55,271 bases of DNA from NCBI GenBank assembly GCA_024763555.1, contig JANTFG010000001.1, forward strand, positions 1-55,271, written 5' to 3'. Both the position numbers and the translations under genes were made by a program. Below, piece after piece: positions 5,361-48,046 of this stretch. Under the pieces are notes generated by a model. The model was not told where the DNA came from. It saw nothing but the letters and a program-made list of their open reading frames with translations, and searched no databases. Position 1 is the first letter of the stretch; the number at the start of each line of letters is the position of its first letter. The DNA is from Thermoanaerobaculales bacterium. GTDB taxonomy: Bacteria > Acidobacteriota > Thermoanaerobaculia > Thermoanaerobaculales > Sulfomarinibacteraceae.

Positions 5361-6032
5361 ATGAAGAACACGATCGTGATGCTGATCATGCCGGTCATTG
5401 CCGCCCTGACAGTCTCAGCCGGGGAACTTCCAATACCCCGCGCGGATCCAGAGCCCTTCTTCTCCGAATACGTCGAAGGGGCTGCCTCGAAGGCGCCAGG
5501 CGACCTCGCCCTCGAGATTTTCAACCCGACGAATTTCCCGATCGAACTGGGGAATATGAGCTATGTCATCGAAATCTACGCCGACGGAGCACTGACTCCG
5601 ACCGCCGTGATCTCCCTGGTCGGGACCATTCCTCCCCAGGGAACATATGTCGTTGTCGCCTCCGGCGCCGACCCGATCCTGCTGGCCCTTGCGGATCAGG
5701 TCGAGCCCCTTCTTGTCTTTGACGGGAACGACCTCATCGTCCTCCGGGGCCTCCTGCAGGCGAAAGCTCCGGCAGACCGCCAGCTGACCATCCTCGATGC
5801 CATCGGCCAACTCGGCAACGATCCAACGCCCCCCGGCTACTGGGGCGCCTGCCCCCTTTGTACGGCCGACGTCGACCTGAGACGCGACCCGACGGTCCTG
5901 TACGGCGATATCAGTCTCAGCGATGCCTACGACGTCGCAAGCGGCTGGCTGGCCAACCCACCCGACGACTGGACGGATTTGGGCAGCCACGTACCGGTTC
6001 CCGTCGAGTTGATGTCATTCAGTATCGAGTAG
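5361..6032 (+). CDS. Secreted lamin-tail-domain (LTD)-like protein
   Basis: ATG 5361 is preceded by GGGAGGGA, and the signal peptide is MKNTIVMLIMPVIAALTVSAGE. FFSEYVEGAASKAPGDLALEIFNPTNFPIELGNMSYVIEIYADG follows the LTD pattern seen at N-termini of ExeM/NucH-type extracellular nucleases. The longer listed ORF (from 5220) would overlap thrC. Confidence 0.7.
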   Translation: MKNTIVMLIMPVIAALTVSAGELPIPRADPEPFFSEYVEGAASKAPGDLALEIFNPTNFPIELGNMSYVIEIYADGALTPTAVISLVGTIPPQGTYVVVASGADPILLALADQVEPLLVFDGNDLIVLRGLLQAKAPADRQLTILDAIGQLGNDPTPPGYWGACPLCTADVDLRRDPTVLYGDISLSDAYDVASGWLANPPDDWTDLGSHVPVPVELMSFSIE

Positions 6033-22800: not shown

Positions 22801-23292
22801 ATGAAGAATCGGACTTTTTCAGCGTTGATCATGGGTCTGTGGATAACTCTTCTCTTGGTCTTGGCTGCGACCGGAACCGCAGCGGGGAGGGATTTGGGAC
22901 AGCACCTTCCGGGCTGGAAGATGGCGCGTTTTTTGCCCCTCCAAGGTCGAATGGTCCTTGAACATGACGGTGAAATGCTGGTGGTTCGGAGCGGGGAGGA
23001 GATCCCCGGCCTTCCCGGCGCCATGGTGAAGACGATCGGTTCAGGAGGTGCGTTGATTGAAATTGACCAGCCGCCCGAGGGGCTCGATGCCGACCAAGAA
23101 CAGTCAAGATATTGGTTGCTGGTGAAATCAACTCGGGATGGGAAGACCGAGGTCATCGTGATCCACGCGTTGCCCGAGGAAGGACTGCTCCCCGAACAGT
23201 CGGTAGAGACCCAGGAAATTCCGGTTTCGAAGACCTCTCCCAGCTCGGTTTTGAAATCTCAGCCTGAGAACAGAGAAGGGAACAAACAGTGA
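22801..23292 (+). CDS. Small (163 aa) secreted or membrane-anchored protein, first gene of the giant-protein operon
   Basis: The signal/anchor is MKNRTFSALIMGLWITLLLVLAATGTAAG. Its TGA (23290-23292) overlaps the GTG start of the giant gene. The middle segment (LVVRSGEEIPGLPGAMVKTIGSGGALIEID) weakly recalls PilP/GspC-type beta-domains, which is a low-confidence impression. Confidence 0.7.
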   Translation: MKNRTFSALIMGLWITLLLVLAATGTAAGRDLGQHLPGWKMARFLPLQGRMVLEHDGEMLVVRSGEEIPGLPGAMVKTIGSGGALIEIDQPPEGLDADQEQSRYWLLVKSTRDGKTEVIVIHALPEEGLLPEQSVETQEIPVSKTSPSSVLKSQPENREGNKQ

Positions 23293-35200: not shown

Positions 35201-38200
35201 CGGGGAAATCAGCCTGACGTGGGCCGCTCCGACGCCACCTCCCGACAACCCGGAAAGTTATCGTCTCTATCGGGCGACCGGGATCGGGGAGTTTTCACTC
35301 TTAGTCCAGGTTCCTGCGGATCGTCTTGAATGGCTGGACACCGGACTTGAGGAAGGTCTGACCTATCGGTACCGTGCCACGAGCCTCGCCTGGATTGATG
35401 GTGTACTCGTGGAAAGTGATGCTTCTGCCGAGGCATCCGCCGTTGTTGAATGCTCCACTGTGCCTCCACCGGTACTCTTGGTACCGACGGTAGCCGGTGA
35501 GCCGATTGACTGGCCTTCGGACTCAGCCGACATCGGTGGGCGGGCATGGCCCGGTTCGGATGTCACGCTTCTTCAGGACGGTTCCCCTGTCGCTTTTGTG
35601 TCGATTGATCAGAACCTTCCCGACGAAACTCATCCACTTCCGGGCTATGGGGATTCCGGTCCGATTCTGGCGCTCAGCCAGGACGGTCGGGTGGCCGCAT
35701 ATTCTGTGTATGACGGCGACAGCAAACTGATGATTCGGGATCTGGAGAGTGGGAAGACCACGACGATTGTCAGACCTGATCCGGGCTTCATCGATGTGGC
35801 TGCGGACGGTCATACTGTTGCTTTCATCGACCGTGTGTCCGGTCAAGAAGACGTCTTCGTTGCCGACGTGGCAACCGGTGAGGTCAGCCGTTTGACCGAC
35901 GACGGAGAGAGCAAAGAAGGCCTTGCCTACTCGCCCGATGGTGGTTGGGTCGCCTACATAGAGCGCGGTTCTCAGCGGCGTCTCCTACTCGTGGAGACGG
36001 CGACGGGTTCGGTCAGAGAAATCTACTCGACCAACTCTTGGAATGACCTTGGTTGGCCGGTCTTCAGCCCGGATGGGGATCTGTTGGCCGTCAAAGGTGA
36101 CTGGCAGATCATTGTCTTCGACCTTTCGACTGGCGAAAACCAATATATCTGGACCGATTGGAGTGCGGCCATGACCCGCCAACCGTTCTCCGCGGATGGT
36201 CGGTATCTCTGTTGGACGGAATATCCGAATTCTATCCCGGAGACGGCGATCATTAAGGTCTACGATCTGATCGAAGATGCTTCTATCGATATTCTCTCTG
36301 GCCAAGAGGGTGTGTTTGCCGGCGCTTTCGTCGATCAGAACACACTGGCATTTCTCAGGTTCCTGCCCACCAAAGCGGGCAGCATCAACGGTGGCGACGT
36401 CGAGGTAGTCTACTTGTCGTTGCTGGACGGTTCAGAAGATGTTTTGACCGCGAGGGTTGCTCTGGATGCCCTTGCCGGAACCGGATTAGACGGCGAATGG
36501 AGCCTGATCGCGACCGCCGATGGGTCGCTATGGATTCCGCAACAAGAAGAGACTCTCATGCTATTCCGGCCGACCGGGCTCTTCACCGTGGCGGAGGTTC
36601 CACTGCATCCGGGCGCCAACGAGTTCATCGCGCGCCAACTCTTCGACGGCATATCGATGGACTCCACGTCAATCGAAATCAACGTGGCGCCGGACCTCTT
36701 CGGTGACGCCGATGTTCTGGCCGTCGGGGCGACGCCGGCATTCCCCTTGACCGGGGACTCGGTTCTGATCGACGGCGTCGTTCAGAATGTCGGAAATGCT
36801 TCGATGAATCATCTCGTCGTGACCCTCAATCGAGTCGATAAGAACGGTCTCTCTCATTCGGTTGAAGTCGATATCGTGGATCTGGCGCCAGGCGCCTACC
36901 ATAGGGTTCGCTCAACCTGGGATACAACCGGGTTGACGGGCGACAATACCTGGATCCTGTCAGCCGATCCGATCGACGCCATTCCAGAACTCGACGAAGA
37001 GAACAACAGCGCTTCAGTCCTGGTTCCCCTCCGAGAGGATCTCGGACTCGAGGCGTCTATTTCGACGCCTCAGGCTGAATATCAGCTCGGCGGACTTGTT
37101 GGGTTCGAGATCACTGTTTCAGCCAACGGAGGGCCCCAAGAAACCCGGGTCGTGACTCAGGTGGAAACCGCGAACGGTGACTTGGTGGCAGTCCTCGATG
37201 ATCGGACCTTGAATGACTTTGGTCATTCGACCGAGACCTGGGGCCTCTCGTGGCCCTCGGACCAGGTCTATCCCGGTGATTACAGGGCGCGCGTGATCGT
37301 CACAGCCGCCGACGGCGACAACGCCGAAGCGGATGTGGACTTCTCGTTGTTCGTCCTTACCGAGGTTGAGGCCGCAGGCTCGGCCGATCGAGCCTCGTAT
37401 CACCGTGGCGATCGGGCAATATTCGAGGCTGAGGTGCGCAATACCGGCCAGGCATTGGTCTCAGGCGCCGTCGTTGAAATGGCTGTTGAGCCGCTTGGCG
37501 GGGGTAGCACGATCGCTGTCGAGACACGAGATCTCGTGACCCTGCCCGGGGGCGCCGATACGGTGTTGTCCTGGAGTTGGGACACTGTTGGAGCACCCTT
37601 GGGTGCACTTCAATTCGTGAATCGGGTCCTCGCCGAAGATGGAGACATCCTGGCCGTTTCGGCGCCCTATCCCTTCGTCATTGAGAGTGTTGGAGCGGCA
37701 TTGAGTGGTTCTGTCTTCGCAGATCCCGGCCGCTTAGAACCAGGTGAAACCATGTCGATCACCGGGGAGGTTGCCAACCTTGGGGATCAAGGTCTCTTCG
37801 CACTCGAAGTTGCGGCCGAGATTATTGATCTCGAAAATGGTCTTGTCATCGACCGGTTGACCGATATCGTCGACCTGGGAGTCGGTGGGACAGCGTCGTT
37901 GTCGTGGGCCTATACCCCGACGATGACGCGGCTGGATTCTTATGTCGTTCTCTTGTCGGCAAACCGGCAGGATGTCACGCCTCCAAGGATTGAGCCGCTG
38001 GCATCGGCGACCTTTACCCTTGTGGACCTGACGCCACCGGATCTTGTCTTGCTGGATCCGGATGCAGGGCCGGTCTGCGATATCGTCGATATTCGTGCCC
38101 GGGCGACGGATGCTTTGACCAGCGTCGTTCGAGTGACCTATCTCCTCGATGAGCGTACGCCCGCTGTGGCTCTGGATCTGGAGTCGCTGGAAGACACCGT

Positions 38201-40352
38201 CTTTGCTTCGAGGTGGTATGTGCAGCCGGGACAGACCGGGTTGCATACGATCTCGGTCTTTGCCGAGGACGAGGCAGGCAATGTTGCCGGCCCGGTCTCG
38301 GTCGAAGTCTCCGTCATCGACGACTTGACCCCACCTGAACTCAATATCGTTGGGCCGGTGGACGGCAGTTGCGTTCCCGGTCCGGCAACCGTGGTCTTCG
38401 ATGCAATCGACGACAATCTCGAGAGCGTCATGGCGACCCTGGATGGTGAAGCCTACAACTCGGGCGATCCTATTCCCGATGGTCCCCACATGGTTGTGGT
38501 GAGCGCTGTTGACGTCTGCGGGCACGAAGTACAGGATCTGCGGACCTTCCTCGTCGATTCACTGGCGCCGGAGATCGTGGTCACAGGTGTCGAAGATGGC
38601 GTGACCTATCTTCCGCCCCTGGACATTAACTGGAATATTACGGACACCAATCTGGAAATCTACTCGTCCACGTTGAATGGGACACCCGTGCTAAGTCCCC
38701 TGATTGTCGATCAGGAGGGGAGCTACGTCCTGGAGGTCAGCGCTACGGATTGCGCCGGCAATCAAAGCTCAGTGGTAATTGGATTCGGAATCGGGTCCGG
38801 CGCCGTCACCCTGGTATCCGACCTCGATGTCCAACCGTTTTCTGTCGAACCTCCCCTGGAGGTCGTCGCGGCAGGGACCGTTGCCAACGCGGGAGAGTCG
38901 GATCTGCAACAGGTGACGATCGGGCTTCGCCTGGTTGATCCCTCGACGGGAGAAACCGTGGACATCAGGACGCGGGAGGATGATATCGATGTCGGGGCTT
39001 CGGTAGAGGTCCGCGAGGCATTCGATACATCCGGTCTCAGCCGACAGCTCTATCGGATTCGGCTTGAGGCTTCCGGAACGTCCGGCGGTGGGGCCTTCAA
39101 TCAAGTTCTGGCGACCCGGGACTTCGAAGTGGTTGATTTGACGCCACCAGAGGTCACGGTGAATTCACCTGCAACGGGCCCGGCCTGCGATCCGGTTCCC
39201 GTCCGACTTGAGGTCCTGGACAGCTTCAGCGGCGTGGATTCCGTTTGGGCCAGAATCGACGGTAATCCCGATCTTCTCGAACTCGACTTCCTGCCGGGAG
39301 ATCCGGATCCCGGGAATCTCTGGGGGACGGACCTCGTCTTCGGACCAAATGCGGGAGGCATTCACCAGCTGGAGTTTCTTGCCGGTGATATTGCGACAAA
39401 TGTCTCGTCACCGATCGGAGTCGAGGTTGACGTCGATGTTGAACCACCGGTTCTGAATCTTGACGCTCCGGTCGACGGAGCATGTCTCAGAGATCCGGTA
39501 ACCATCACCTTCGATGCGGTTGATTCCAATCTGGCGCTGCTTGAGGCGGTACTCAACGGGAATGTGATGACCTCCGGGTTCGTTGTGAGCCAAGACGGTT
39601 CATACGAGCTCATTGTGACCGCTCAGGATGCCTGTGGCCTCGAAACTGCTTCCCAGACGACCTTCATCATCGACAGCGCGGCGCCGGTGATTACCGTTAC
39701 CGGGGTCGCCGATGGAGGCGTTTTCGACAGCGGCGTGATCGCCGACTGGTTTGCCGAGGACGCCAATCTGTCGGAGATGACCGCAACACTTGACGGGGCT
39801 CTGGTAACGCCGCCCTTGACCATCGACGAGGAAGGACAATATACCCTGGCCGTGTCGGCATCGGACTGTGCAGGGAATTCAGCCGACCAAACCCTGATCT
39901 TTGCCGTCGAGGGGCAGGCGCCTCTGGAGCTGTCCGGAAGTGTCACACTCGGGGCCGCCATCGTCGATCTTGGAGATACCTTGGAGATTTCAGCCGAGGT
40001 ATTCAACGACGGTGGCGCAGCGGTCAACGGCGTTTTGGCCCAGGTCAGGGTGGTCAAAATGTCGACCGGCCATCAGGTCGGCGGCGCGGAGGCTGGAATG
40101 GACCTTGGAGTTGGGATGAGCGACACACTGGTCGACTTCTTCGACACCGCCTCGCTTTCCGGTGGAATGTACCGAGTTGAACTGTGGGTTTCCGGCGACT
40201 ACGCCGGAGAACCCTATGAAGAGCTTCTGGATCAGAAGCAGTTTGAACTCCTGGCGCCGGCGCCGATCCCCGACCTCGGGACATTCGGACGCCTGCTCCT
40301 GTTGCTGCTGCTGATTGGGGCCGCCTCTGCCGTATTGCGGAGGGTCGCATGA
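23289..40352 (+). CDS. Giant (5,687 aa) secreted multidomain protein with an HExxH zincin head, many adhesion-type modules and a C-terminal sorting-signal-like tail
   Basis: The reading frame is uninterrupted for 17 kb. The start is GTG with signal peptide MRRVFLPLLVFALVVTPGSLAWA. NHEVGHQW lies at aa 172-179. Repeats QNPDGGWGW / DHRADGGFGE / QQPNGSWSS mark the alpha/alpha-toroid (prenyltransferase-like) region. CARDB-like units occur with EDNNEA / SNNRA motifs. FSPNGDAVKDTTTIFY / FSPNSDGILDTTEITF mark the four FlgD-Ig-like modules. FN3-like Y(N/R)(V/L)YRDG motifs occur about five times. SPDGGWVAYIE-type propeller blades (TolB-like) and a discoidin-like module are also present. The tail is PIPDLGTFGRLLLLLLLIGAASAVLRRVA. 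Confidence 0.9.
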   Translation: MRRVFLPLLVFALVVTPGSLAWAAGDSCVVSPEELARSYSNHPEKVTQSGLGSWIDGIYVLPYTYPGTYDKIVGGSLNSAPRRWVSQSFFEDSPDAYDFVVIVTNFEWDATAGVAGFHIGVANEVRGIGLEVFDQSQLWGSENLQGYIDIRWLSAYIREDGSLDSEFLNALLNHEVGHQWLARAQFLDGGTPSDALLGVDGVHWSYLLDSEASYMYGSEWTDNGDGIFTATKIRDRYSHLDLYLMGMLAPEEVPDFTLLVNPSIPSDGYPGLGDTIEATPRSISVFDVIGAEGPRIPDWRQAQHEFRVGMIYLVDPTIPVMSEDIERLNDIRASWEESFFRQTRGRGVVDVAEPSDMPVGGSSVDLTEAVNWLVSIGAGGVWRDSPTTWVRETAEAIAALDRIGGHGDIVINGLENLENETPVATELVARRLLALTRQTGADLSTPVETLAAKMKASGGWPAFPRYLPDFITTARAVRALDAAGAVDIASEGWSWLASLQNPDGGWGWQEGLGSTTLATEEVLLAAQRLFPDDYWNLPAVQTAVAWLLDHRADGGFGEPFPNTEATAQFLLLSEGQAINQVITQEAVDFLKVRQQPNGSWSSSAHSTALAINALASYALPDPFVDEARVFADPEQPFDDEEIELLVEIRNLGLPLEAGTPFQWEARLADNPQVLVWLESGELPAVDDIGFVTLGTTISPNLPEGVYEIRFVIDPNREVPQRERSNDVGTVRLEVRSHPDGVDLQLTDADLSLDPTDISSIPQPLTVNGMIHNLGLSDATAVVLRVFDGDPADGVVLGETTVAVPALGLSAFSVPAVVTEARSMTITIVADPDRLTDDSFRFNNTASRVLPLLHRIDLEVLPGSLNATPPTIVVGEDQMLEAVIRNAGTVAVSDFHVIFSYEWGTPAALFPIEDLIVTETLAPGETIMVSVDWSPNVGGDPLPIQVDVDPNGDTGDTDLSNNRARLNLTVPPSDLPNLVIGPESFILTPDPPLQGALCQIGVVIANPTINAAGPFEAQLWLDAVGTGILLGSESFAGIGAGSTVQMNLVWDVVEPEDRLLYAVVDVDGVVVEFREDDNEAFIEPDVQTLPDLVVTGGGISFLPSFPKVGDVVHFEVLLGNQGDQASSATLLQLVSTQDSVIDSTAVPAMEGHTEMTLGLDWETGTFMGDAALTVRVDSSETVIELFEDNNEAGVTVGVQDADIFLSNQIFSPNGDAVKDTTTIFYRAGGEVEIQTVEGRLVRNLVPENGEEYIVWDGLSNRGNPAPDGLYTVTAGETSSWVVVDTNHYAITNELEQRLLVGFLQPRVPGQDRPCSWNPDCNLERSWFTSMTGSPVSEEIYLVERYHAEGTAFDEDTYSLWMFAADQMVELGELPENLSLFGVDASGSRFVVSGGEPYRLLRVPEMTLEDITSQGGWGSSPWISPDGLWLLWVSRNDDTVYLDSLDNSGETYSFNPEGVDDGSICGYSVFWTPRGEAVVSLKTWNNSGYFYRISTTTEPPSASSIQAQGWNGSCGGGGIPSTIEDVQAGDPDLNAKSEVGGDGEILESGLDFDQDTLTWLTLEGGGYGGYGGYGEAGGYGGYGGSELSASIFALEDGAAGESGSSNLGWSEWSDVYYSLSNDGDMYTVSWSEGYKSEGSAQPAGGSDLSGGAYIWLDSAQETGRDPKAWSPVDQYLTNWRTEEVRGLPLRMDDTLWTPPDTYIVGNLNTAQQYYGDQLPYFTPAANLKMRVKPRVLFGDGGVDLWLLATDRYLESFLLEYSDLDVDPDVYFPIGLPSNEALYNERWGTWLPPGNGRYRVRLTGTDRAGNQRSDSRRVTWNGDNDIANLYTESRYLSPRSSIGIKDTLIFHYTVLRPANLVFFIVDSDGETVKEINVAADEIGQKTTTWDGTDSFGNPVTDGEYLLAYGEASWPVIVDNAAPSATLRIEATGYARETREVVDEYGQPILDADGNPTCVSSSKDEYLNEVFGAVDDSNLMDWEYQVLVDEAEDLWQTLALGTEPVGAGSEVLRGRYAADWFVNRRIRYIAHDLAGNETITEASYRNEMLVFTDSEPSCRRALHPCLYPDRPELENLMDGGGLFESAAPLILNPFYDTLLVQDSVWTESLDLRLEYREASLAGVPAGPWIEGTIDVAPDPVGRGFETLGWPFDLECPDTERVPNAGLTVLYWDHPTLPQMPVEVRLSATNDDGQEIVSPTRLFYPEMPLTLQHIDVDSRGDILLLTNVSDGVVRNPVLQIRRIELTSNGIIIRWETLMSIVDRLGPGEIAEFSTGCLLVEESEEILRAAGTGGFGGEALSTLAQVPFREGYSTLGSAFGFVSGSCPSGSGSGSGLFDNSCGDGPWVQGWVNNGTSAVAQGHVALDPVGVSFLSYELLVDGQPFLSVPGPLQSADFTDELDLSRLSEGQHAVTERYTYPGEAGLLGQCERSFPLTIDRLPPVLGITEPYDGALICPDDATMAVTLADQDATPGRLQKVFLDGGLRKSSGVGCPGFNGGDGATYTIDGLYQLQPGWHEIGAQSIDRAGFASCATPINVYVPDLPHIVATQLPWFGYPRHKSVFSPLNTMDRALVETIDFTTNTPGTWSVSIERAGVVYQSTSGELSAPDELVEIIWDGTDPSGALAENGFYFAHITARSPCGAEDTARVNFELDATPPTLVVNEPLSGLEAGAVVEVIGEVWDSQGNFQHAAVEIMYLDGGLGEWEVVDGLDREIKGEPGVIGTWSPRTREAGNYLLRVRAWDLPGNVTISPSIDILVPEVDPLIEFVDREPGLFSPNSDGILDTTEITFGLFQEAVVTLQIVDPDAGVVRTLIDQQTLPVDTLLSTQVWSGEGDSGVTVPDGQYHVVVSAGDPAIPPVIPPEQERLTVVVDTIPPVIELTSPAEGALVPLPLELIGSQVEIHPELWTLTLTGPEVDGLVIATGSGAYDSRILTIIEDGDVVDGDYVLVFDAIDAAGNQASLVRRFTIDNTLPVAEILLPEVGTVVNTLNEPLSLHGEVFDEHLRDWTWAYAPGLTPDFSDFDFFRSGTPTEVGGAVDLFAWDASNLPDGDYTLRFSGTDVLNQEGEARSPFIVDNTPPEVAITQPAPGAVIADPLEILGSVADERLKNWTLSLIPGQDIPMQVGSAPANGVLTEWILLPPDGAYTLLLEAEDMAGNRSEVSVDVQIQVMPPSPPVIVSADVTDRTDVALAWVPGPGPEPEAYNVYRDGVLITPVAIDETNWLDASLGTGTYVYTVRALSQAGVETEDSNPAEVEIDLRPPLANIVLPVDGARVADLVSIFGTASRDTAFGGWRLWATFMPSGAPVLLGGGSAPVVTDLLTVWDTSQPAWVEGPYELRLEAWDIFGNTAVDVINVEVDNTPPTVPVLTVAFSQALDPDMTVDDIHVEWTLTPTPPDLAGFYLYRNGQLANAPGPVLGSPAPFLITETNYDDRDLPDGTYIYFVTAADTAENESGASNESDPIVIDTRRPHAVITDPADGSEFEHSTPVTAECEDLDVESVVFEYMPEGGSVWTPIGSPLTSPSPWTIDFEPGASGLYHIRAVASDALGADPAPESVALTETDLPPERPEDLSLAIDGGDIHLEWSPVADPFGDLAGYRVYRDGTLLTPTLLPTDQLEFDDPGLTDAYYNYRVAAVDDADHEGPQASVGGWVRTPQFDWVFPVTPANTMVLEARSDTYFNQVEFERLADVGDWEQMASLPFDGPLVAYPSASPAYGFNIYRMRGSDQDGNRSHWSTPLIIVRHDPPIEPTNVGATAAGNDVQVDWDASVDPDLSGYLVGRDGALISDSPTAFPYNAGTQQLIASGGALADWEMVVDGNDATAWYPDAETAGAGPSWQWTWNDSVALETVRVAWMGGAYARRFSVEVEIDGHWLWWYYAENNWSTETLVDLGIEATGVRLSVPPGTYCSSCALAEITLAGVDHLQTNQYTDPDLPGQAYEYGVRNLNRWGQESPEASVSVQIGGTALAPPENLQASPASCGEISLTWAAPTPPPDNPESYRLYRATGIGEFSLLVQVPADRLEWLDTGLEEGLTYRYRATSLAWIDGVLVESDASAEASAVVECSTVPPPVLLVPTVAGEPIDWPSDSADIGGRAWPGSDVTLLQDGSPVAFVSIDQNLPDETHPLPGYGDSGPILALSQDGRVAAYSVYDGDSKLMIRDLESGKTTTIVRPDPGFIDVAADGHTVAFIDRVSGQEDVFVADVATGEVSRLTDDGESKEGLAYSPDGGWVAYIERGSQRRLLLVETATGSVREIYSTNSWNDLGWPVFSPDGDLLAVKGDWQIIVFDLSTGENQYIWTDWSAAMTRQPFSADGRYLCWTEYPNSIPETAIIKVYDLIEDASIDILSGQEGVFAGAFVDQNTLAFLRFLPTKAGSINGGDVEVVYLSLLDGSEDVLTARVALDALAGTGLDGEWSLIATADGSLWIPQQEETLMLFRPTGLFTVAEVPLHPGANEFIARQLFDGISMDSTSIEINVAPDLFGDADVLAVGATPAFPLTGDSVLIDGVVQNVGNASMNHLVVTLNRVDKNGLSHSVEVDIVDLAPGAYHRVRSTWDTTGLTGDNTWILSADPIDAIPELDEENNSASVLVPLREDLGLEASISTPQAEYQLGGLVGFEITVSANGGPQETRVVTQVETANGDLVAVLDDRTLNDFGHSTETWGLSWPSDQVYPGDYRARVIVTAADGDNAEADVDFSLFVLTEVEAAGSADRASYHRGDRAIFEAEVRNTGQALVSGAVVEMAVEPLGGGSTIAVETRDLVTLPGGADTVLSWSWDTVGAPLGALQFVNRVLAEDGDILAVSAPYPFVIESVGAALSGSVFADPGRLEPGETMSITGEVANLGDQGLFALEVAAEIIDLENGLVIDRLTDIVDLGVGGTASLSWAYTPTMTRLDSYVVLLSANRQDVTPPRIEPLASATFTLVDLTPPDLVLLDPDAGPVCDIVDIRARATDALTSVVRVTYLLDERTPAVALDLESLEDTVFASRWYVQPGQTGLHTISVFAEDEAGNVAGPVSVEVSVIDDLTPPELNIVGPVDGSCVPGPATVVFDAIDDNLESVMATLDGEAYNSGDPIPDGPHMVVVSAVDVCGHEVQDLRTFLVDSLAPEIVVTGVEDGVTYLPPLDINWNITDTNLEIYSSTLNGTPVLSPLIVDQEGSYVLEVSATDCAGNQSSVVIGFGIGSGAVTLVSDLDVQPFSVEPPLEVVAAGTVANAGESDLQQVTIGLRLVDPSTGETVDIRTREDDIDVGASVEVREAFDTSGLSRQLYRIRLEASGTSGGGAFNQVLATRDFEVVDLTPPEVTVNSPATGPACDPVPVRLEVLDSFSGVDSVWARIDGNPDLLELDFLPGDPDPGNLWGTDLVFGPNAGGIHQLEFLAGDIATNVSSPIGVEVDVDVEPPVLNLDAPVDGACLRDPVTITFDAVDSNLALLEAVLNGNVMTSGFVVSQDGSYELIVTAQDACGLETASQTTFIIDSAAPVITVTGVADGGVFDSGVIADWFAEDANLSEMTATLDGALVTPPLTIDEEGQYTLAVSASDCAGNSADQTLIFAVEGQAPLELSGSVTLGAAIVDLGDTLEISAEVFNDGGAAVNGVLAQVRVVKMSTGHQVGGAEAGMDLGVGMSDTLVDFFDTASLSGGMYRVELWVSGDYAGEPYEELLDQKQFELLAPAPIPDLGTFGRLLLLLLLIGAASAVLRRVA
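23808..23822 (+). other. HExxH zinc-binding motif (HEVGH, aa 174-178) of the giant protein
   Basis: The codons cat gag gtc ggc cat are in frame. The context is LLNHEVGHQWLARAQ..DGVHWSYLLDSEASYMYGSEW..SHLDLYLMGML. Confidence 0.7.
38022..40250 (+). repeat. Tandem duplication of an about 370-aa super-module ([3 Ig-like units + 1 CARDB-like unit] x2) at the C-terminal end of the giant protein
   Basis: Copy 1 starts VDLTPPDLVLLDPDAGPVCD (38022) and copy 2 starts VDLTPPEVTVNSPATGPACD (39132). They are collinear throughout. Matching pairs include DDLTPPELNIVGPVDGSCV / VEPPVLNLDAPVDGACL, DSLAPEIVVTGVEDG / DSAAPVITVTGVADG and SATDCAGNQSS / SASDCAGNSAD. Confidence 0.85.
40254..40349 (+). other. C-terminal sorting-signal-like tail (IPTL-CTERM-like: motif + hydrophobic helix + basic end)
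   Basis: APAPIPDLGTFGRLLLLLLLIGAASAVLRRVA is compared with the I-P-T-L-x-x-W-G / hydrophobic / Arg-rich layout of IPTL-CTERM (recalled from TIGRFAMs descriptions). Confidence 0.5.
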
Positions 40353-43300
40353 AACGGCTTTGGAGAGAGACTATGAATCGACGCTTCGGTTTTGCTATTG
40401 CGGGGACACTCGTATTCTTGTTCCTGATCATTCCCGGAATTGGTATCGCAGATGACATCGGCGCTTGCGTAGAGCACTTTCCGTTGTTGCAGAGGTCCCT
40501 GACCTCAAAGGGACAGGGTCTGAACATTGACTCCGAAGACTTGCTTCGAGAGCTCAAGATCGAGCGGGCCCTGTGGCTCGATGAAGTCGAACACCAGCGA
40601 AAGGTCCTCAATGCAGCCGGAGCCCCGCAGGATCGTCTTCTCGCTGCCGACAGTGTCATGAGGCGTCGTTTTGGCGAGATTGCGGCACTGATCCACGATG
40701 GATCACCCCTTTCGGTTGAGGCTCAAGAAGCCCTTCAATCATGTGGCGAAGCCCGGCGATCCTTTCCTTCGGGTCCCCTTTCGACGGCTTCGGTTCTGCC
40801 TGAGTTTCGACACAGGACGCCGGCTCTGCCCGACCCCTTATTTCCCGAGGCTTATCGGGATACGCCCTCGGAGTCGATGCGGGAGGCGGTTAAGAAAACC
40901 CGATCTCATGAGAAGTCCGGATTCGAACCCGAAGGTCCCGATCTGATTGCGGCCAAGGCATCCGAGTTGGGCGACGACCCGATGGCATTGTATGCCTTTG
41001 TGTTGAATGAGATCAGGCCCACCCTTTCGGTCGGGGCCATGAGGGATGAGGTTTCTGTTCTTCGAACCGGCGAGGGCAACGATGCCGAACAGGCCGGGCT
41101 CTTAGCGGCGCTTTTTCGCGAAACCGGATATCCGGCCCGGTTGGCCTGGGGCATTCAGGAAATCGGTGTCGAAAAGCTACTGGACCACTTTGGCGCCGGA
41201 GATTTCCGTGCGCTCGAAAGAACCCTTACAGCGGCCGGTATTGCGTGGGAACCCGTACTTGTCGGCGGTTCTCCCGCCGCCTACCGGCTGGAGCGGGTCT
41301 GGTGTGAAGTTTGGCTTCCCTTTGGAAATTTCAGAGGTGTGGTTCTCGATGCGACAGGCGCTACGTGGGTGACCCTGGATCCGTATCTGAAGAACTTCGA
41401 GGAGCAAGAAACCCCTGCGGTTTTGGACAACATGAACTTCGACGAGGGACCCTGGATCGATGCCTATCTGGCCGGCGCCGATTGCACGGCCCCTCTTTCC
41501 GAGGCCGGCGCTTGCCCGGCCCCCAGGGATTTGCTCATTGACGAGGTTGCTGCCTTTTTGGAGGGTTCTGTAACCACAGTTGAAGAGGCGGTGACGCCGC
41601 CACCAATTCGAAGCCACTCCGAGCCGATCTTGCCGACGGCAATGGGCGGCAAGATCGTCGCCGTCTCCGGCGTTGATGTTGAACTTCCCGAGGCATTGCG
41701 GCACCGAATCCGTATGGTGGCCAAAGACGGTGTGCTGACACTTTTTGACGGCGAGTTTTCGGCAAGTGACCTCGTTGGCAAGGAGGCCGTCATCTGGTTC
41801 GTTCCAGCGACCTTTGACGACGAAGCAATCCTGGCAGCCTACGGTGGCGAACTGTGGCGTGTGCCGCCCTATCTGATCAACCTCACCCCTGAGTTGCGCA
41901 TCGACGGCGAGGCAGTGCAGCGTGGCGTGGAAGGCATCGGGATGGGCCGTGCTTTCGAGTGGGAATTCGTGTTGAGTGCTCCTGGTGGGAATTCAACCGG
42001 CTTCGTCAACACCGCGTTGGCCGGGGTTCCGACCGGATTTGGTCTGGCGCCCGGCTTCTCGGGCTACGAGCCGGTCTTCGGCGAGCCGAGTAATACGCTC
42101 GAAGTTCTGGCATCCCTTGCCGGGTCATGGCTTGATGGTGTTGGCACATTCGAAAAGGAGATGGCCGCATTGGCCGGCGGGGCTGTCATACACCCCTTCC
42201 CCAACATGGTATCGGTCGCCAGTGTGATGCGGGTCGAGAGTTCCCTCGGCCTGATTGAAGGGCTGGAATGGTTGGGCGTCTCGGTTGATGCCGACGTGCA
42301 TGCCTCCCGTCTTGTCGGGGAGGCTGAGGCGCAGCGTCAGTGGTTGGAAATGGTCGAACTTGATGCTTCTGCCAGGGAACGCCTGTTGTTTGAGACGGGG
42401 TACGCAACTCCCTCGATCAGTGCCGACAAGGCTCTGATGCTCGGGGCGACGACTGGTGTGACTATTCATCACATCGATACGGCTAATCTTGGGGCTATCT
42501 TGCCGACCTTGCCGTTTGACGCCGACGTTCTTGATGAGATCGAAGGCTGGGTGCTCGCCGGGGGCGAAGCATGGGTGCCTGCTGAAGAAATCCAGACGCT
42601 GGAATGGACCGGAGTGGGTTATCGATTGTGGGACCCCGATACCGGCGAAAATCGTTACCAGTTGGCGGGCCGTCTTTCAGGCGGCATGACCGCGGCGCCG
42701 CCGTTCGAGGTGGTCGAAGGCCTGAGGGATCCTCTGCAATATCCCTCACCCGAGTACGTCAACTCGGACCCGACGGCTGCGGTCTATATTGAGATCTTCG
42801 ACGGCAACCTCCAGATCGGTACGGCCGGCGACGAACTGTCACTGCAAAATAACGCCATCCCACTGAGGGCCCGGGTCTTCGACGTCAGCGGGCGACCGGT
42901 CAAGGATGCGCCGGTTGAGTTTCAGGTTCTGGGGGGTGGAGGCGGCTTCGGCGGGCCGGGAATCGGCACGATCTCGGCGACCAGCAATGCCGTTGGTATT
43001 GCCGAGACCGTTCTGACCCTTGGGGAGCACACCTCAGACAATCCCTACTATCTATTGTTTCCCGATGATGAACATTCGACCCGATGCGGCTTGACGGTCG
43101 TGACGGCAAGCGTCAACGGGTTTGGAATGCCTGACGTCTTCTGGGAGATGGCGGAACCCGGAGACCTCGATCAGCTGCTGACCCCCCGGGGGACCTCGGT
43201 CGAGGCACTTCCACACTTGAGTGCCGGCAGCCTCGTAGCCGTGCCCGCCGATCAATACGAGAACCCGATCTCCAATGTGGAGGTCACCTACGTGCTCAAC

Positions 43301-46300
43301 GGGAGCACCTCGTCCGAGCCCGATGAAGGGCCCGAACTGCTCAGTCGCGATGAAAAGGAGCAGTGCCGTCCCGGGCTGGTCATGGCCGGAGAATGTCCCG
43401 GGGGCAGTGGATCGAAGACCGATACTGGCGGTGTGACCGGAACGTGGGTCTATTTGATCATCGGTGACGAAGACATTACCGTAACGGCGACAGGAACTGA
43501 TGATTCGGGATCGGCCGATGTGACGTTCTCCGGGCATTCCAGGACCCAGAGCGTTCCTGGCGATTGGGCCGTTGGATGGCCGGTCATTCTGGTCAGCAAA
43601 AGGGGACAACCGGTCAATCAGGACGGTGAGATCCTTGAGGCCTATCCGCCGGGAGAACAGTCTCTGGCGCTCCAGGTCTCGTTGTTCATCGTGCGTGAGG
43701 ATTTCTCTGTCCATGAGTGTGACAACGACAACAGGTATTGCACCGTTCCTCTTGGGACCTATCGGACGAAACGCCTTGGGCAAGACGAAGCTTCCGGCTG
43801 TCAGCCTGAGAGTTGCGGGGGGGGAACGCTGAATGAACGGGGACAGGTTCATTTTTCGGGCGCCGGGGCCGACGCGACGATCAGCACCCAGGACGCTGAC
43901 GGCAACTACACCCATCAGGTCACCATGCCAACTTCTCCTGGGCGTTATGAAATCACAGCCTCCCCGACAGTCTGGATCGCCGTTCCGAAGATTCCTGACG
44001 ACCCGGACTACGTGAATGAAGTCGTACCGTGTCCCTCAGGAGATGATCCGTGTGGCGCCAGGATGGAGCTTGACGAAGTCTCCGACGCGAACTGGGAGAC
44101 CAATTTTGTGCTCTGGTCCGTTCAGGCCCAGGTGACCGAACCGCCCCCAATCGTCAAGTTGGGTCACAAGAACCGGCACGAAGAGGTTACCGAGTTTCCT
44201 TTCACCATTGAGCCCTCAAACTATCCGGCAATGAATACAGTCGTGTACTTTTTGGAAGACGGCCAGATTCGTCTGACAGCCTTGGCCGAGGGTCAACAGG
44301 CGGCAGATCCCAAAGCGCTCGTCCCACCAGGTGAGATCTTCGCTCACCCGGAAGGTGACCACAAGGTAGGAATCTACCTCAACTATGGCTGGGTCTGGCA
44401 GCCCTATCCCGGTGAGCCGGTGTCCATGGTGATGGAGGGTGAGCAGGTTGATTTCAGGGTTGTGATGAGTGACCTTGACGTTGACTCGAACAACAACGAC
44501 GGGATTGGTGAACTTGAGCGGGACGACCTGGAAGATTCCCTGGAAGCAGGCGGTGGAGATTCTCGCGCTGCGGAAGTTGATGCCCAGGTGCCTCGGGGCA
44601 AGATCGTCTTCGTCAATCACAATGACGATGATAATGATGGCGTACCGGACTTTGCTGATCTTGAGATGAATGGGGGACACCAGGAGCGGAGCATGGTTCC
44701 AATCGTTATTGAAGTACGACCAGAGGGTGGCGACTATGAGGACGTATGGATCACCTTCCATTACGATGGCCAGACCGAGGGTCAGATCGATGCTCTCGAG
44801 GCGGCCTATAACGTGAATTTCCCGGACCCAGAAATGAAAATTGGTGGTCTGAAAAAGCTGCAAGACCCAGAAACCTGGGGCTACCCAGATGGAGATGGGG
44901 AGGGCTATCAATACAAGAATTTCTCCCAATACAAAACCGGCCAGTTTCGGATCTGGAACGTCGAGGATCCCTCGGATCCTCGAGGAAGCTATGAGTTGGT
45001 TGAATCGGGTGATGAATATCCGGTGACTTGGTTGGGTTTTGACAGTGATCATCAAGAGAAGACCTTCTGGGTCGAGGCGATCAACGGAATTCGTGTCGGC
45101 GATCCCTGGGAACCGGCGGAAATCCGTGTTGAAGTCTCTCTTGAATCCGGTGACGTTGCGCAGGCAGTTGAGGATACGATCGTGCTCTATCCGGTTGAGG
45201 GCAACCTCGGGGTCAATAACGGCAATAACAAAAATAACGATACTATTTTGCGTCCCGGTGTCCCGGATGAGACATTCACCATCGATGAATATGACGAAAT
45301 GGTGGAGGATCAGGGTGATGGATTCAGGTTCTGGCGATCAGAGAGAAGTTACTTTTCGGTTGAAAACATTGAAGATTTGGCGCCACTGATTCTCGAAGTC
45401 CACCAGGAGCTGCTGGATGCCGGTTTTGAGTTGGCATTGTCCCTTGATATTGATGGGGGCGGTGATGATTCGGAGAGCTTGAGGCTGGGTCGGATGCCGG
45501 AGGGAACCACTCGCCTCAGTCATCTCAGGCTGATAGGTACGGCTAATAAGTTGGTCTACGGGGACAATGAAGAATTGCCGTGGAGTGAGGTCGTCAAGAC
45601 GGGCGATCCTCCGAATCGTCTGCCGGAGCTATCCAAAGCCAAGAGCGAGCTAGTGTTCTCTGTGAAACCAGGCGATGGCGGGATTGTAAGGGCTACGATT
45701 CGAATGTTCGCTGCGCGGAAGGAGCATTGGTACCAAAGTTTCACAGATGATAGAGATTGGCAGGCTGTTGATTCGGTTCGGTTGACCATAGCGCCAATCG
45801 AGAGTTTTTTCTCAGCCTATACTGTCCGCAAGTTTGATTCTGAAAACAAAGAAGAATTCACCGAACCCGACAACGTATTCGAGTACCCCACCGAGGTCGT
45901 CGATGATGATCCCAAGACCATCTTTGGAATGCGCTTCCCTTTGGCACGCCATGTCGATGATTCATTCGGAAACGGTATCCCCAAAACCGGAACCCCCAAC
46001 CCCGATATCAAGCCTTCTCTGGTGTGGCTACACGGTTACAATGTCTCTTTTGATGCCGCCATCGACTGGGCACGGGTCGCCTACAAGAGACTCTACTGGG
46101 TGGGTTATCGCGGAAACCTCATCCTGTTCACCTGGAGGGGTAACCCACAGGGGGCAACTGGTTTCGCCCACTTCGGATTGGCAAACCAGTGGGGCCTCCA
46201 AACATCCGAAAGCCTACGGATTTTCTTGCGGGATGAGATGAATGTTCCTCCCGAGAAGATCCACGTTTTGGGTCACAGTCTGGGGAATCTGGTTGTTTAT

Positions 46301-47047
46301 GATGCGATGCGTTTGGACAGGGCAAAGGGGAACTCAGGGAAGCTCTTCCACAATTTCATTTCGACCGAGGCAGCGATCTGGGGAGAGACCTTGTGGCCCC
46401 AAGCGCCGGTCGAGTATTGTCCTGATGGCGGCGGGCTCTTCTGCAACCCGATCACTTACAGCATTCGGGAACTCCAGTGCTCGTCATGGACATTCTGGTT
46501 CAACCAACAGGGCCGTGAGGCGTGGAAAGCAGTCGATAGGATCTATCACTCCTACAGTCCTGACGACAATGTATTGACCCTCATTATGAGGGAAAGTGAT
46601 CGTTTTCTTCGACAAGCTCCGGCCCAGAACCCTCACTACTACCGACCGGAATGCTCTGATGATGACGATTTTAGAGTTCCCTGGACGCCGAGGCACGCAA
46701 ACGGAGACATCGATATGAGTTTGCACCTCAATCCCCAGCTTTGTTTTGGAGACAGTTTTCATCCGGGTTGCCCGGCGCTGCTGGATCCTGACGACAGGAG
46801 ATTTCTACCTTATACCCATCTGGCCCTCGAATTGCCGGCTGGTGCGGCATCCAATCCGATGGTTGGAACTTCTCACGGGAATTTGACGTTGAACGATGTC
46901 AATGCCCGGGACCTCGGTTGGAACGATTCATTTTCGCCGACGGGAGGCCATAGCAACCTCAAGGGGGAGACTTTCCCCGATATTTTCCACTGGTGGGAAG
47001 CACTGGTATCGGACAATGGCGCCTTGCCCAAGGGAAGGGAATTCTAG
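40349..47047 (+). CDS. Giant (2,232 aa) secreted or anchored protein with a degenerate transglutaminase-like core, Big_1-like Ig modules, acidic Ca-binding-like loops and a C-terminal alpha/beta-hydrolase
   Basis: The ATG overlaps the stop of the 5,687-aa gene (ATGA), with GGAGG 5 nt upstream. The N-terminal hydrophobic segment is FGFAIAGTLVFLFLIIPGIGIA. The domain evidence is given in the sub-features and findings. Confidence 0.9.
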   Translation: MKRLWRETMNRRFGFAIAGTLVFLFLIIPGIGIADDIGACVEHFPLLQRSLTSKGQGLNIDSEDLLRELKIERALWLDEVEHQRKVLNAAGAPQDRLLAADSVMRRRFGEIAALIHDGSPLSVEAQEALQSCGEARRSFPSGPLSTASVLPEFRHRTPALPDPLFPEAYRDTPSESMREAVKKTRSHEKSGFEPEGPDLIAAKASELGDDPMALYAFVLNEIRPTLSVGAMRDEVSVLRTGEGNDAEQAGLLAALFRETGYPARLAWGIQEIGVEKLLDHFGAGDFRALERTLTAAGIAWEPVLVGGSPAAYRLERVWCEVWLPFGNFRGVVLDATGATWVTLDPYLKNFEEQETPAVLDNMNFDEGPWIDAYLAGADCTAPLSEAGACPAPRDLLIDEVAAFLEGSVTTVEEAVTPPPIRSHSEPILPTAMGGKIVAVSGVDVELPEALRHRIRMVAKDGVLTLFDGEFSASDLVGKEAVIWFVPATFDDEAILAAYGGELWRVPPYLINLTPELRIDGEAVQRGVEGIGMGRAFEWEFVLSAPGGNSTGFVNTALAGVPTGFGLAPGFSGYEPVFGEPSNTLEVLASLAGSWLDGVGTFEKEMAALAGGAVIHPFPNMVSVASVMRVESSLGLIEGLEWLGVSVDADVHASRLVGEAEAQRQWLEMVELDASARERLLFETGYATPSISADKALMLGATTGVTIHHIDTANLGAILPTLPFDADVLDEIEGWVLAGGEAWVPAEEIQTLEWTGVGYRLWDPDTGENRYQLAGRLSGGMTAAPPFEVVEGLRDPLQYPSPEYVNSDPTAAVYIEIFDGNLQIGTAGDELSLQNNAIPLRARVFDVSGRPVKDAPVEFQVLGGGGGFGGPGIGTISATSNAVGIAETVLTLGEHTSDNPYYLLFPDDEHSTRCGLTVVTASVNGFGMPDVFWEMAEPGDLDQLLTPRGTSVEALPHLSAGSLVAVPADQYENPISNVEVTYVLNGSTSSEPDEGPELLSRDEKEQCRPGLVMAGECPGGSGSKTDTGGVTGTWVYLIIGDEDITVTATGTDDSGSADVTFSGHSRTQSVPGDWAVGWPVILVSKRGQPVNQDGEILEAYPPGEQSLALQVSLFIVREDFSVHECDNDNRYCTVPLGTYRTKRLGQDEASGCQPESCGGGTLNERGQVHFSGAGADATISTQDADGNYTHQVTMPTSPGRYEITASPTVWIAVPKIPDDPDYVNEVVPCPSGDDPCGARMELDEVSDANWETNFVLWSVQAQVTEPPPIVKLGHKNRHEEVTEFPFTIEPSNYPAMNTVVYFLEDGQIRLTALAEGQQAADPKALVPPGEIFAHPEGDHKVGIYLNYGWVWQPYPGEPVSMVMEGEQVDFRVVMSDLDVDSNNNDGIGELERDDLEDSLEAGGGDSRAAEVDAQVPRGKIVFVNHNDDDNDGVPDFADLEMNGGHQERSMVPIVIEVRPEGGDYEDVWITFHYDGQTEGQIDALEAAYNVNFPDPEMKIGGLKKLQDPETWGYPDGDGEGYQYKNFSQYKTGQFRIWNVEDPSDPRGSYELVESGDEYPVTWLGFDSDHQEKTFWVEAINGIRVGDPWEPAEIRVEVSLESGDVAQAVEDTIVLYPVEGNLGVNNGNNKNNDTILRPGVPDETFTIDEYDEMVEDQGDGFRFWRSERSYFSVENIEDLAPLILEVHQELLDAGFELALSLDIDGGGDDSESLRLGRMPEGTTRLSHLRLIGTANKLVYGDNEELPWSEVVKTGDPPNRLPELSKAKSELVFSVKPGDGGIVRATIRMFAARKEHWYQSFTDDRDWQAVDSVRLTIAPIESFFSAYTVRKFDSENKEEFTEPDNVFEYPTEVVDDDPKTIFGMRFPLARHVDDSFGNGIPKTGTPNPDIKPSLVWLHGYNVSFDAAIDWARVAYKRLYWVGYRGNLILFTWRGNPQGATGFAHFGLANQWGLQTSESLRIFLRDEMNVPPEKIHVLGHSLGNLVVYDAMRLDRAKGNSGKLFHNFISTEAAIWGETLWPQAPVEYCPDGGGLFCNPITYSIRELQCSSWTFWFNQQGREAWKAVDRIYHSYSPDDNVLTLIMRESDRFLRQAPAQNPHYYRPECSDDDDFRVPWTPRHANGDIDMSLHLNPQLCFGDSFHPGCPALLDPDDRRFLPYTHLALELPAGAASNPMVGTSHGNLTLNDVNARDLGWNDSFSPTGGHSNLKGETFPDIFHWWEALVSDNGALPKGREF
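41000..41370 (+). other. Transglutaminase-like core with the catalytic Cys and His positions substituted
   Basis: GEGNDAEQAGLLAALFRETGYPARLAWG aligns to the G-x-C-x-x-F-A-x-L-x-x-A-L-x-R-x-x-G-I-P-A-R motif with Asp245 (gat 41081-41083) at the Cys position. ERVWCEVWLP aligns to H-A-W-x-E-V with Arg316 (cgg 41294-41296) at the His position. The Asp of the triad is retained (VVLDATG, gat 41348-41350). Confidence 0.55.
46016..46560 (+). other. C-terminal alpha/beta-hydrolase (DUF900-like esterase/lipase) domain with a GxSxG nucleophile elbow
   Basis: SLVWLHGYNVSFDAAIDWARVAYKRLYWVGYRGNLILFTWRGN is followed by IHVLGHSLGNLVVYDAM. GHSLG is at 46271-46285 and the Ser1977 codon agt at 46277-46279. 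Candidate acid and base residues lie in YSPDDNVL and SPTGGHSN. Confidence 0.6.
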
Positions 47048-48046
47048 ATGTCTGGATTTCGGAGTTGTTCATTCAATACGGGAGTGGGTTGTTTTTTTGT
47101 CGGTCTGAGCCTCCTTGTTTTGACTGGCGTTTGCCCAGCGGATGGCCTTTCTTCCTTTCGAACCGTTCCCATCAGTGTCTCCGGAACGGTCATCGATGCC
47201 CAGGGCCGCCCTGTTCGGGAAGTCCAGATGACGATTCTGGAGGGGCGGCCTCAGGGCAATTCGTTTGAGATCTCCTGGAGTCGTCGACACCGAACCATTG
47301 ACGGTGGGTTCGAGGTTCGATGTGAGGATTGCGCCGACCTTCGTCTTCGGTTTCAAGCCGAGGGATTCTATCCGAAGGAAATCGGTTTCAAGCTGACCGA
47401 TGCCGAGGCCAAGAGGTTGTTAACGGGCCAAGACGGCGATGGTTTTTCCTTGGTTCGCCAGGGACTGATCGTTGAGCTTGAGCCCAGTGTCAATCCCGTG
47501 AACCTCGACTGGACTTCGGTGGTCCTTGACGTGCTGGAAGATGGGCCGATGAGGGTTCTGGCCGCAGAGAAGGGGCGGGTGAGAGGGACGATCGAACGGA
47601 CGGTTTTCTCAAAAAGGCAGAAGGCCGGCGGGGGGGGCGGAGGCCCGGCGATGGTGGCTCTCAAGGCCGCCCCAGGGCAGTTCGAAGCTCTCGTGCGAAA
47701 GACGACCGGTTATGAGGCCGAGGCGGCACCGAACGCCGTCTTTCTTGAGTTTTCCGGGGGAATGACCGGCGTTATCCCCATTGATTCTCCCGAAGGAAAC
47801 TACAAGACCGTGTATCGGAGCATGATCGAGGCGCCGGAAGAGGGTTATGTCGATCACCTGGTGATCGACCCTAATAGTGATCGGAGGCAGTATTTCTACT
47901 GCCGGATTGGAGATCTCTTCGGGAAAGGAAGCGTATCCTCTTTGAGGGCCGCTTACGGGCGTGATTCCATTCGAATCCTCGAAGTAGGCATCGAGGTCTA
48001 CCTCAATCGAGACGGCAGCAGGAACCTGGATTCACTCGAATACTGA
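47048..48046 (+). CDS. Secreted 332-aa protein with an N-terminal CarboxypepD_reg-like domain, last gene of the operon
   Basis: The ATG immediately follows the TAG of the upstream gene (47045-47050). The hydrophobic N-terminus is GVGCFFVGLSLLVLTGVCPA. ISVSGTVIDAQGRPVREVQMTILEG..FEVRCEDCADLRLRFQAEGFYPKE is beta-sandwich-like. A Gly6 tract is present. Confidence 0.75.
   Translation: MSGFRSCSFNTGVGCFFVGLSLLVLTGVCPADGLSSFRTVPISVSGTVIDAQGRPVREVQMTILEGRPQGNSFEISWSRRHRTIDGGFEVRCEDCADLRLRFQAEGFYPKEIGFKLTDAEAKRLLTGQDGDGFSLVRQGLIVELEPSVNPVNLDWTSVVLDVLEDGPMRVLAAEKGRVRGTIERTVFSKRQKAGGGGGGPAMVALKAAPGQFEALVRKTTGYEAEAAPNAVFLEFSGGMTGVIPIDSPEGNYKTVYRSMIEAPEEGYVDHLVIDPNSDRRQYFYCRIGDLFGKGSVSSLRAAYGRDSIRILEVGIEVYLNRDGSRNLDSLEY

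Follow-up and report, generated by a model that had tools for sequence, protein, structure and literature searches.

The stretch of Thermoanaerobaculales DNA analysed here, hereafter the window, comprises 55,271 nucleotides (nt) and carries at 40349-47047 a gene whose product of 2,232 amino acids (aa) ends in an alpha/beta-hydrolase domain (aa 1881-2232; 45989-47044). All features described below lie on the forward strand. As far as sequence and structural model can tell, the domain is securely assigned as an intact, strongly constrained Ser-Asp-His hydrolase of the lipase-like type. We propose, at a probability of roughly one half, that it forms the lipase or phospholipase tip of a Sec-exported toxin, and that the gene directly downstream (47048-48046, 332 aa), whose ATG abuts the TAG stop of the hydrolase gene, encodes an exported, immunity-like partner. 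The hydrolase gene itself starts with an ATG that is preceded by a GGAGG sequence at a distance of 6 nt.

A lipase-like hydrolase domain with a conserved triad

Relatives of the domain were collected with HMMER, for which 1.84 billion representative proteins were scanned exhaustively for similarity to aa 1840-2232. At E<=1e-3, 840 relatives were obtained, of which 138 reached E<=1e-10; a word-indexed protein search gave a single match for the isolated domain and 25 matches with a 17-sequence profile. Scans of genomes and metagenomes contributed 93 loci to the locus set, which also includes the orthologue locus L016. Conservation was judged on an alignment (A3) of 73 sequences translated from independent loci, with identities to the query between 17 and 66%. 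The nucleophile elbow GHSLG (aa 1975-1979; 46271-46285, checked codon by codon) is present as an earlier, sequence-only reading of the window had claimed, together with the peptide quoted there, and the serine at its centre, Ser1977 (codon 46277-46279), is kept in 72 of the 73 sequences. Asp2073 (46565-46567), which is the second D of YSPDDNVL, and His2201 (46949-46951) in SPTGGHSN had been named as candidates for the catalytic acid and base, and both are found in 73/73 sequences. The same holds for the elbow neighbours His1976 and Gly1979 (73/73 each), and the oxyanion-hole pair His1895-Gly1896 (46031-46036) is kept in 71/73 and 72/73 sequences, respectively. A second alignment with 42 sequences gave the same picture. 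As such conservation of the triad and the HG pair across phyla and at 17-40% overall identity is not expected otherwise, it argues for catalysis. The domain proposed from the sequence could be confirmed, but its start was moved slightly upstream, from 46016 to approximately aa 1881 (45989).

A single relative, at locus L034 (2268-4282), carries Gly in place of the catalytic Ser (AHGLG). The downstream partner is broken as well, into two pieces of open reading frame (ORF), and both genes of this cassette may be decaying.

The AlphaFold2 model built on A3 reached a mean predicted local distance difference test score (pLDDT) of 85.6 and a predicted TM-score (pTM) of 0.90, and the order of its elements is that of an alpha/beta hydrolase (Pfam clan CL0028) beginning at strand beta3. 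In the numbering of the model, strand 21-25 (beta3) is followed by the HG pair of the oxyanion hole, strand 102-107 (beta5) by Ser108 and helix 110-123 (helix C), strand 193-200 by Asp204 (Asp2073 of the protein) and helix 205-218, and strand 311-316 by a loop with His332 (His2201) ahead of the terminal helices. Along the chain, the nucleophile of the triad comes first, then the acid behind beta7, and finally the His behind beta8. Two inserts are seen: the first follows beta6 (model 138-192, aa ~2007-2061), and the second, which is long and partly of low confidence, follows helix E (model 219-310, aa ~2088-2179). Among the points on which the sequence-only reading had staked its assignment were a Ser1977 conserved in homologues and an alpha/beta-hydrolase fold prediction; both were found, with all three triad residues at canonical positions in the model.

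Foldseek matched 25 PDB structures at E<=1e-3, every one of them an alpha/beta hydrolase; lipases and esterases prevail, and thioesterases and a few peptidases are included. Among them are thermophilic lipases, YjfP, monoacylglycerol lipases, pancreatic and lipoprotein lipases, TesA, and esterases. Nearly every named match in the viral Foldseek library is an alpha/beta hydrolase, too. The TM-scores amount to only 0.2-0.28, which means that only the core is shared with solved alpha/beta hydrolases.

Within Pfam, DUF900 (PF05990) is matched with 24.4 bits by the whole protein and with 27.6 bits by the isolated piece. Since these scores exceed the gathering cut-off of 20.5, the motif can be considered real, far beyond chance; Lipase, Abhydrolase_6, DUF676, and LCAT gave sub-threshold matches to the domain. 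The DUF900 layout that had been suggested for this region was thus borne out by a score above the cut-off, but only for the N-terminal half of the Pfam model: the match is limited to profile positions 22-113 of 232 and does not extend to the Asp and His regions. Eight relatives matched at positions ~13-131 only, likewise the N-terminal half, and DUF900 was matched by 33 of the 46 full-length relatives. As the match covers this half only, the domain is best described as a divergent DUF900-like subfamily with a C-terminal half of its own.

The same genome encodes a second, stand-alone canonical DUF900 protein, G000:C204 (L001:1294-2268), with 324 aa and a score of 61.9 bits, for which no partner-like gene was detected in this genome. 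The hhalign comparison of our domain with C204 gave a probability of 97% and stops at column 136 of 354, just past the nucleophile elbow. For the C-terminal 225 residues with the two inserts, neither a structural nor a sequence counterpart was found with AlphaFold2/Foldseek and hhalign, and the two inserts probably shape the substrate pocket.

The sequence search of the PDB with the window domain yielded only marginal matches to lipases, namely pancreatic ones (2ppl, 1bu8, 1gpl, 1eth; E 0.006-0.3), and the family profile gave marginal matches to bacterial lipases, e.g., Lip_vut1 and Bacillus LipA, so there is no close solved relative. NCBIfam gave no match for the whole protein, the hydrolase domain, the partner, or the region ahead of the hydrolase that is described below as the pre-domain. 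Overall, the hydrolase domain is closest to lipases and phospholipases A1, and its chemistry is probably lipolytic. The function of DUF900 was called unknown in a survey from 2024 (PMC11878206). In a preprint from 2026, cinquedea, a secreted archaeal enzyme, was shown experimentally to be a bactericidal phospholipase with an S-H-S-L-G elbow, and its homologues mostly carry DUF900 (bioRxiv 10.64898/2026.06.10.730825).

The conserved cassette and its linked partner gene

An iterative whole-protein search showed that aa ~1380-2232 are common to 50-145 of 155 relatives, and aa 1-1350 to approximately 7. The conserved cassette of ~850 residues comprises a pre-domain of ~500 residues and the hydrolase, the former being conserved together with the latter in 50-100 relatives. 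The pre-domain (aa ~1380-1880; 44486-45988) was delimited by the coverage profile in the 155 relatives and by the consensus of 46 full-length relatives, which features an acidic N..D.D.DG.PDYAD loop and an NLGVN...EDQ..GF.FW motif. In the window, the pre-domain contains the acidic, Ca-binding-like NDDDNDGVPDFAD loop as well as the NLGVN...EDQ..GF.FW motif; no match to aa 1380-1880 was found in Pfam, NCBIfam, or the PDB.

With lengths of ~900-950 aa, many relatives hold little beyond the cassette. The N-terminal regions of the relatives vary and include HAF repeats, RCC1, Big_1, and RHS modules, with giants of up to 7,614 aa. The position of the hydrolase is strictly C-terminal. In 41 full-length-matched relatives, 0-23 residues follow the domain match, and across all 155 relatives only the unaligned remainder of the domain (0-263 aa) is found past the match. 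Furthermore, among 96 loci the frame stops ~300-460 aa past the domain start in nearly every case in which it is complete.

The partner consists of a signal peptide, a transthyretin (TTR)-like beta-sandwich, and a second beta-rich domain of no recognised family. Its homologues were searched for by tblastn and an iterative hidden Markov model over all ORFs of the collected loci, and were found directly downstream of the hydrolase gene, on the same strand, in 67 of the 79 loci with at least 900 nt of room. When only distinct loci with 1,200 nt or more of space were counted and the match had to span the full length, the partner was present in 55 of 69 loci, and in 31 of 32 within the close subfamily. 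Thirty-four of 37 partners begin with a signal-peptide-like start, and most end no more than 9 residues past the domain. Two tandem copies of the partner occur in L018, L033, L042, L060, L081, L085, and G022:C89. In G116 and G151, the partner position is taken by partner-sized genes that are strongly diverged and barely recognisable. The window genome contains one hydrolase of the subfamily and one partner.

The AlphaFold2 model of the partner (pLDDT 82.3) is nearly all beta strand. Pfam and Foldseek recognised only the N-terminal transthyretin/CarboxypepD_reg-like sandwich, and the Foldseek matches were generic TTR-like sandwiches of teneurin, intradiol dioxygenases, and the N-terminal extension of SusC, which give no functional lead. 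The possibility of a Lif-type foldase was considered for the partner and ruled out: Lif-type chaperones are all-helical and membrane-anchored, the partner is rich in beta strands, and no lipase-chaperone family was found in the Pfam scan.

Two loci show further arrangements of the cassette. At L109 (G116:C94:2500-9045), two hydrolase genes stand in tandem on one strand, and a 404-aa gene between them, in the partner position, is barely similar to the partner profile; the locus looks like an array of cassettes. At L008 (10214-11209), a Sulfomarinibacteraceae locus, an IS200-type (Y1_Tnp) transposase follows directly after the partner gene, a neighbourhood that hints at mobility of the cassette.

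Head, scaffold, and distribution of the hydrolase protein

The hydrolase protein starts with a signal peptide or membrane anchor (aa 1-35; 40349-40453), recognisable by a basic n-region and a subsequent hydrophobic run of 20 residues. The head (aa ~197-800; 40937-42748) contains a transglutaminase-like core (Transglut_core, aa 209-345, Pfam 30.6 bits) and is followed by a stalk resembling immunoglobulin (Ig) domains, within which a Big_1-like Ig domain (aa 835-890; 42851-43018) was matched weakly, with a sub-cut-off Pfam score of 20.7 bits. At the place where the catalytic GxC motif of the transglutaminase family is expected, the head has GND, and so does the head of an RHS toxin in genome G174.

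The latter protein was found when the N-terminal 1,350 aa were searched against 201 genomes of the phylum. The head was matched in four other genomes, none of which has a hydrolase match at E<=1e-20. The G174 protein is complete with 2,298 aa and combines Transglut_core with DUF6531 and 17 RHS repeats; a protein of G059 shows the same combination of Transglut_core, DUF6531, and RHS repeats, with a C-terminus that runs off the contig. By BLASTP, the homology to the G174 head covers aa 197-526 (E=5e-20) and aa 664-777 (E=2e-9). In the protein P0034, RHS repeats are joined directly to the hydrolase domain. From the heads of G174 and G059 and the fusion in P0034 it can be concluded that different tips occur on one head and different scaffolds under one tip. 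Zhang et al. (2012, PMC3482391) described polymorphic toxins of a Sec/T2SS class in which an inactive transglutaminase head stands directly after the signal peptide, with RHS repeats and in some cases also bacterial Ig domains behind it. The window protein shows the features of this class, i.e., a signal peptide followed by a transglutaminase-like domain without the catalytic residues, and a scaffold with differing tips.

Two further pieces of the same genome touch on this architecture. The fragment G000:C422:3-1139, on a 2.6-kb contig, is homologous to aa 730-1105 of the hydrolase protein, and an RHS-repeat protein with an open frame of 1,960 aa was found at G000:C166:4140-4790. Together, they may represent a paralogue of the putative toxin that combines this head with another tip.

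The distribution of the hydrolase is patchy, with 5 of the 201 genomes of the phylum being positive. The labels of the genome bins that carry it are Planctomycetia, Tepidisphaerales, Pirellulales, Verrucomicrobiota, Lentisphaeria, Nitrospinota, Hydrogenedentes, and Sulfomarinibacteraceae, along with one Alteromonadaceae.

Directly upstream of the hydrolase gene lies a giant gene, gene 2 (23289-40352, 5,687 aa), which encodes a signal peptide, an HEVGH head, CARDB/FlgD_ig/Big/fn3/PD40 modules, and a sorting-signal-like C-terminal transmembrane tail. Both in the window and on the orthologous contig L016, its stop codon overlaps the start of the hydrolase gene by ATGA, and L016 has the same three-gene order. 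In the relatives P0026 (7,614 aa) and P0017, both proteins are even encoded in one uninterrupted open frame; the first 5,160 aa of P0026 are collinear with gene 2 (42% identity), after which 2,180 aa align with the hydrolase protein at 40%. The synteny in L016 and the two single-frame fusions strengthen the functional link between gene 2 and the hydrolase gene that had been suggested from the sequence, and the joining of adhesin and putative toxin in one frame suggests how the enzyme reaches its target. At the junctions (P0026 aa ~5445-5510; P0017 aa ~2880-2960; window counterpart 40254-40453), a hydrophobic sorting-signal-like tail is followed by a new signal peptide. As the junction retains both elements, the fused-frame products may still be separated, or a stop codon may merely be missing.

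The HEVGH (HExxH) motif of gene 2 and its flanking HWSYLLDS and DLYLMGM blocks (23289-24550) are kept in P0026, with an identity of ~45%. This head matched nothing in Pfam, NCBIfam, or the PDB, so its earlier assignment as a zincin stands without family support.

Weighing of the toxin reading and comparison with known systems

In the reading that we favour, the hydrolase would be the business end of a Sec-exported, polymorphic-toxin-like protein with the order signal peptide, inactive transglutaminase head, Ig-like stalk, pre-domain of ~500 residues, and hydrolase tip. This protein would be made beside the giant adhesin-like protein and would probably work with it, and the tip would attack the membrane lipids of neighbouring cells. 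The partner would most likely bind and neutralise the hydrolase in the envelope of the producer, by analogy with the periplasmic Tli proteins of the Tle lipases; Russell et al. are said to have described in 2013 how Tle effectors come with such periplasmic Tli immunity proteins. The idea of an effector domain, which had been raised from the sequence alone, gains support from the exported partner downstream, the RHS-toxin head, the RHS fusion in P0034, and the patchy distribution. The swapping of tips and scaffolds, the duplication and fast divergence of the linked partner, and the transposase complete the reasons for which the toxin reading is preferred. With somewhat less confidence, since we would give it slightly below even odds, we suggest that the cassette and its TTR-like partner constitute a widespread, undescribed Sec-dependent lipase toxin-immunity system of Planctomycetota, Verrucomicrobiota, Lentisphaeria, Nitrospinota, Hydrogenedentes, and Sulfomarinibacteraceae. 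If true, giant adhesins on which the lipase is mounted, or to which it is coupled, would bring it into contact with neighbouring cells, as a contact-dependent weapon that does without the machinery of type V, type VI, or type VII secretion systems (T5SS, T6SS, T7SS), and the partner would be the first member of a new family of immunity proteins that are exported.

Several observations weigh against the toxin reading. The conserved unit is the entire ~850-residue cassette, and in classical polymorphic toxins it is only the tip. The low TM-scores leave the lipid substrate class insecure. No dedicated delivery machinery was found nearby, as the scanned neighbours in the window, L006, and L008 match no secretion-system family. 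With regard to the partner, no known immunity family was matched in Pfam or NCBIfam, and the additional surface Ig-like domain on the partner of L006 would be uncommon in an immunity protein. Moreover, every partner detected in the 201 genomes of the phylum accompanies a hydrolase gene, and no orphan was seen, whereas classical systems often contain immunity genes that stand alone. The possibility that the hydrolase is a T6SS cargo was considered separately and rejected, as no VipB/TssC match was obtained in the genome, which is 78% complete.

In the strongest competing reading, which we regard as less likely, the domain would be a degradative esterase or lipase, secreted or displayed at the surface on adhesin-like scaffolds, that serves nutrient acquisition or matrix remodelling, with the partner as an accessory such as an adaptor, anchor, or folding helper. 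The scaffolds are indeed of the adhesin type, with Ig, HAF, Calx-beta-linked, or RCC1 modules, and a surface Ig-like domain on the L006 partner as well as a strict linkage that leaves no orphans in the 201 genomes would suit an accessory. The TTR-like domain of the partner is of a type that appears in the T6SS effector literature; a TTR extension of VgrG reportedly binds the lipase Tle1. Zhang et al. also pointed to a possible role of large lipase-bearing surface proteins in the remodelling of extracellular polymers (PMC3482391). However, genuine RHS toxins carry this head, too, and P0034 fuses RHS repeats directly to the hydrolase. Tandem duplication and rapid divergence of the partner are typical of immunity genes and not of helpers, and its beta-rich fold without a lipase-chaperone family in the Pfam scan does not suit a folding helper, either. 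Finally, the very patchy distribution fits a conflict module better than a metabolic enzyme.

We consider it improbable that the active triad is directed at a substrate other than membrane lipids, e.g., O-acetyl groups of peptidoglycan or polysaccharide, a polyester, a thioester, or a peptide bond, be it in a toxin or in a digestive enzyme. Thioesterases, ferulic acid esterases, PETase, and peptidases do appear in Foldseek at lipase-like E-values, and the C-terminal region of 225 residues, whose two inserts probably shape the substrate pocket, is without a counterpart. However, the sequence matches outside the family are all lipid-acting (DUF900, PF00151, LCAT, DUF676, pancreatic, and Bacillus LipA-type), and the sole characterised enzyme of the DUF900 family is a phospholipase. 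A non-catalytic relic that serves only for binding or as a structural module can practically be dismissed: the protein does carry a pseudoenzyme in its transglutaminase head, and L034 has Gly for Ser, but the triad and the HG pair are kept in 71-73 of 73 sequences across phyla.

A lipase tip on a toxin, as favoured here, is of a known kind, e.g., Tox-ABhydrolase-1 to -3 and the Tle effectors. The subfamily, the pre-domain, the partner family, and the coupling to a giant adhesin were not found in the literature searched. The titles retrieved for a TTR-like immunity partner of a lipase all concern type VI or type VII secretion, and none deals with such a partner. What distinguishes the present case is that half of the domain is without a counterpart in any model or solved structure, that the strictly linked partner belongs to an unrecognised family, and that giant adhesin-type proteins of poorly studied phyla are involved. 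Being mostly uncultured, these lineages have so far revealed little of the ways in which they compete with neighbouring cells. With its two genes and an evident catalytic serine, the cassette offers a directly testable handle, and its description could annotate hundreds of C-terminal regions that are now 'hypothetical'.

For comparison with known systems, four groups are of relevance. With the pancreatic lipase and phospholipase A1 family (PF00151), the domain shares the arrangement from beta3-HG through beta5-GHSLG, and 1eth is among the Foldseek matches with a root-mean-square deviation of 3.2 A over 127 columns. However, the Pfam Lipase model scores 17-20 bits against a cut-off of 27, and the TM-score is ~0.25, so this is a resemblance and not a membership. 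DUF900 and cinquedea have in common with the window domain the HG-[YF]-N ... W ... x-H-S-L-G layout with the same H-S-L-G elbow, and export. Only positions ~17-125 of the 232-position DUF900 model align to the window domain and to all relatives that were compared. Unlike in DUF900, Asp and His of the window domain lie in a distinct region of 225 residues with two inserts, and whereas cinquedea is a single-gene unit, the window domain ends very large proteins and has its own partner gene.

The Tox-ABhydrolase-1/2/3 domains (PMC3482391) and the Tle effectors correspond to the present case in that an exported protein of modular build ends in a GxSxG hydrolase, a dedicated partner that is likewise exported is encoded by the following gene, and the distribution is patchy. 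In contrast to Tle, the window has no T6SS context, and neither DUF2235 nor another Tle-type Pfam family was matched. For Tox-ABhydrolase-2/3, the published description lists SUKH, Imm66, and Imm69 as immunity families, and the partner is none of these but a new TTR-like beta protein. The inactive-transglutaminase RHS toxins resemble the window protein in their signal peptide, their transglutaminase-like head without Cys, a homology over ~600 residues, and adjacent Ig domains. The window protein, however, has no RHS/YD shell but an Ig-like filament followed by a family-specific pre-domain, and its gene is translationally coupled to an adhesin-like gene for 5,687 aa.

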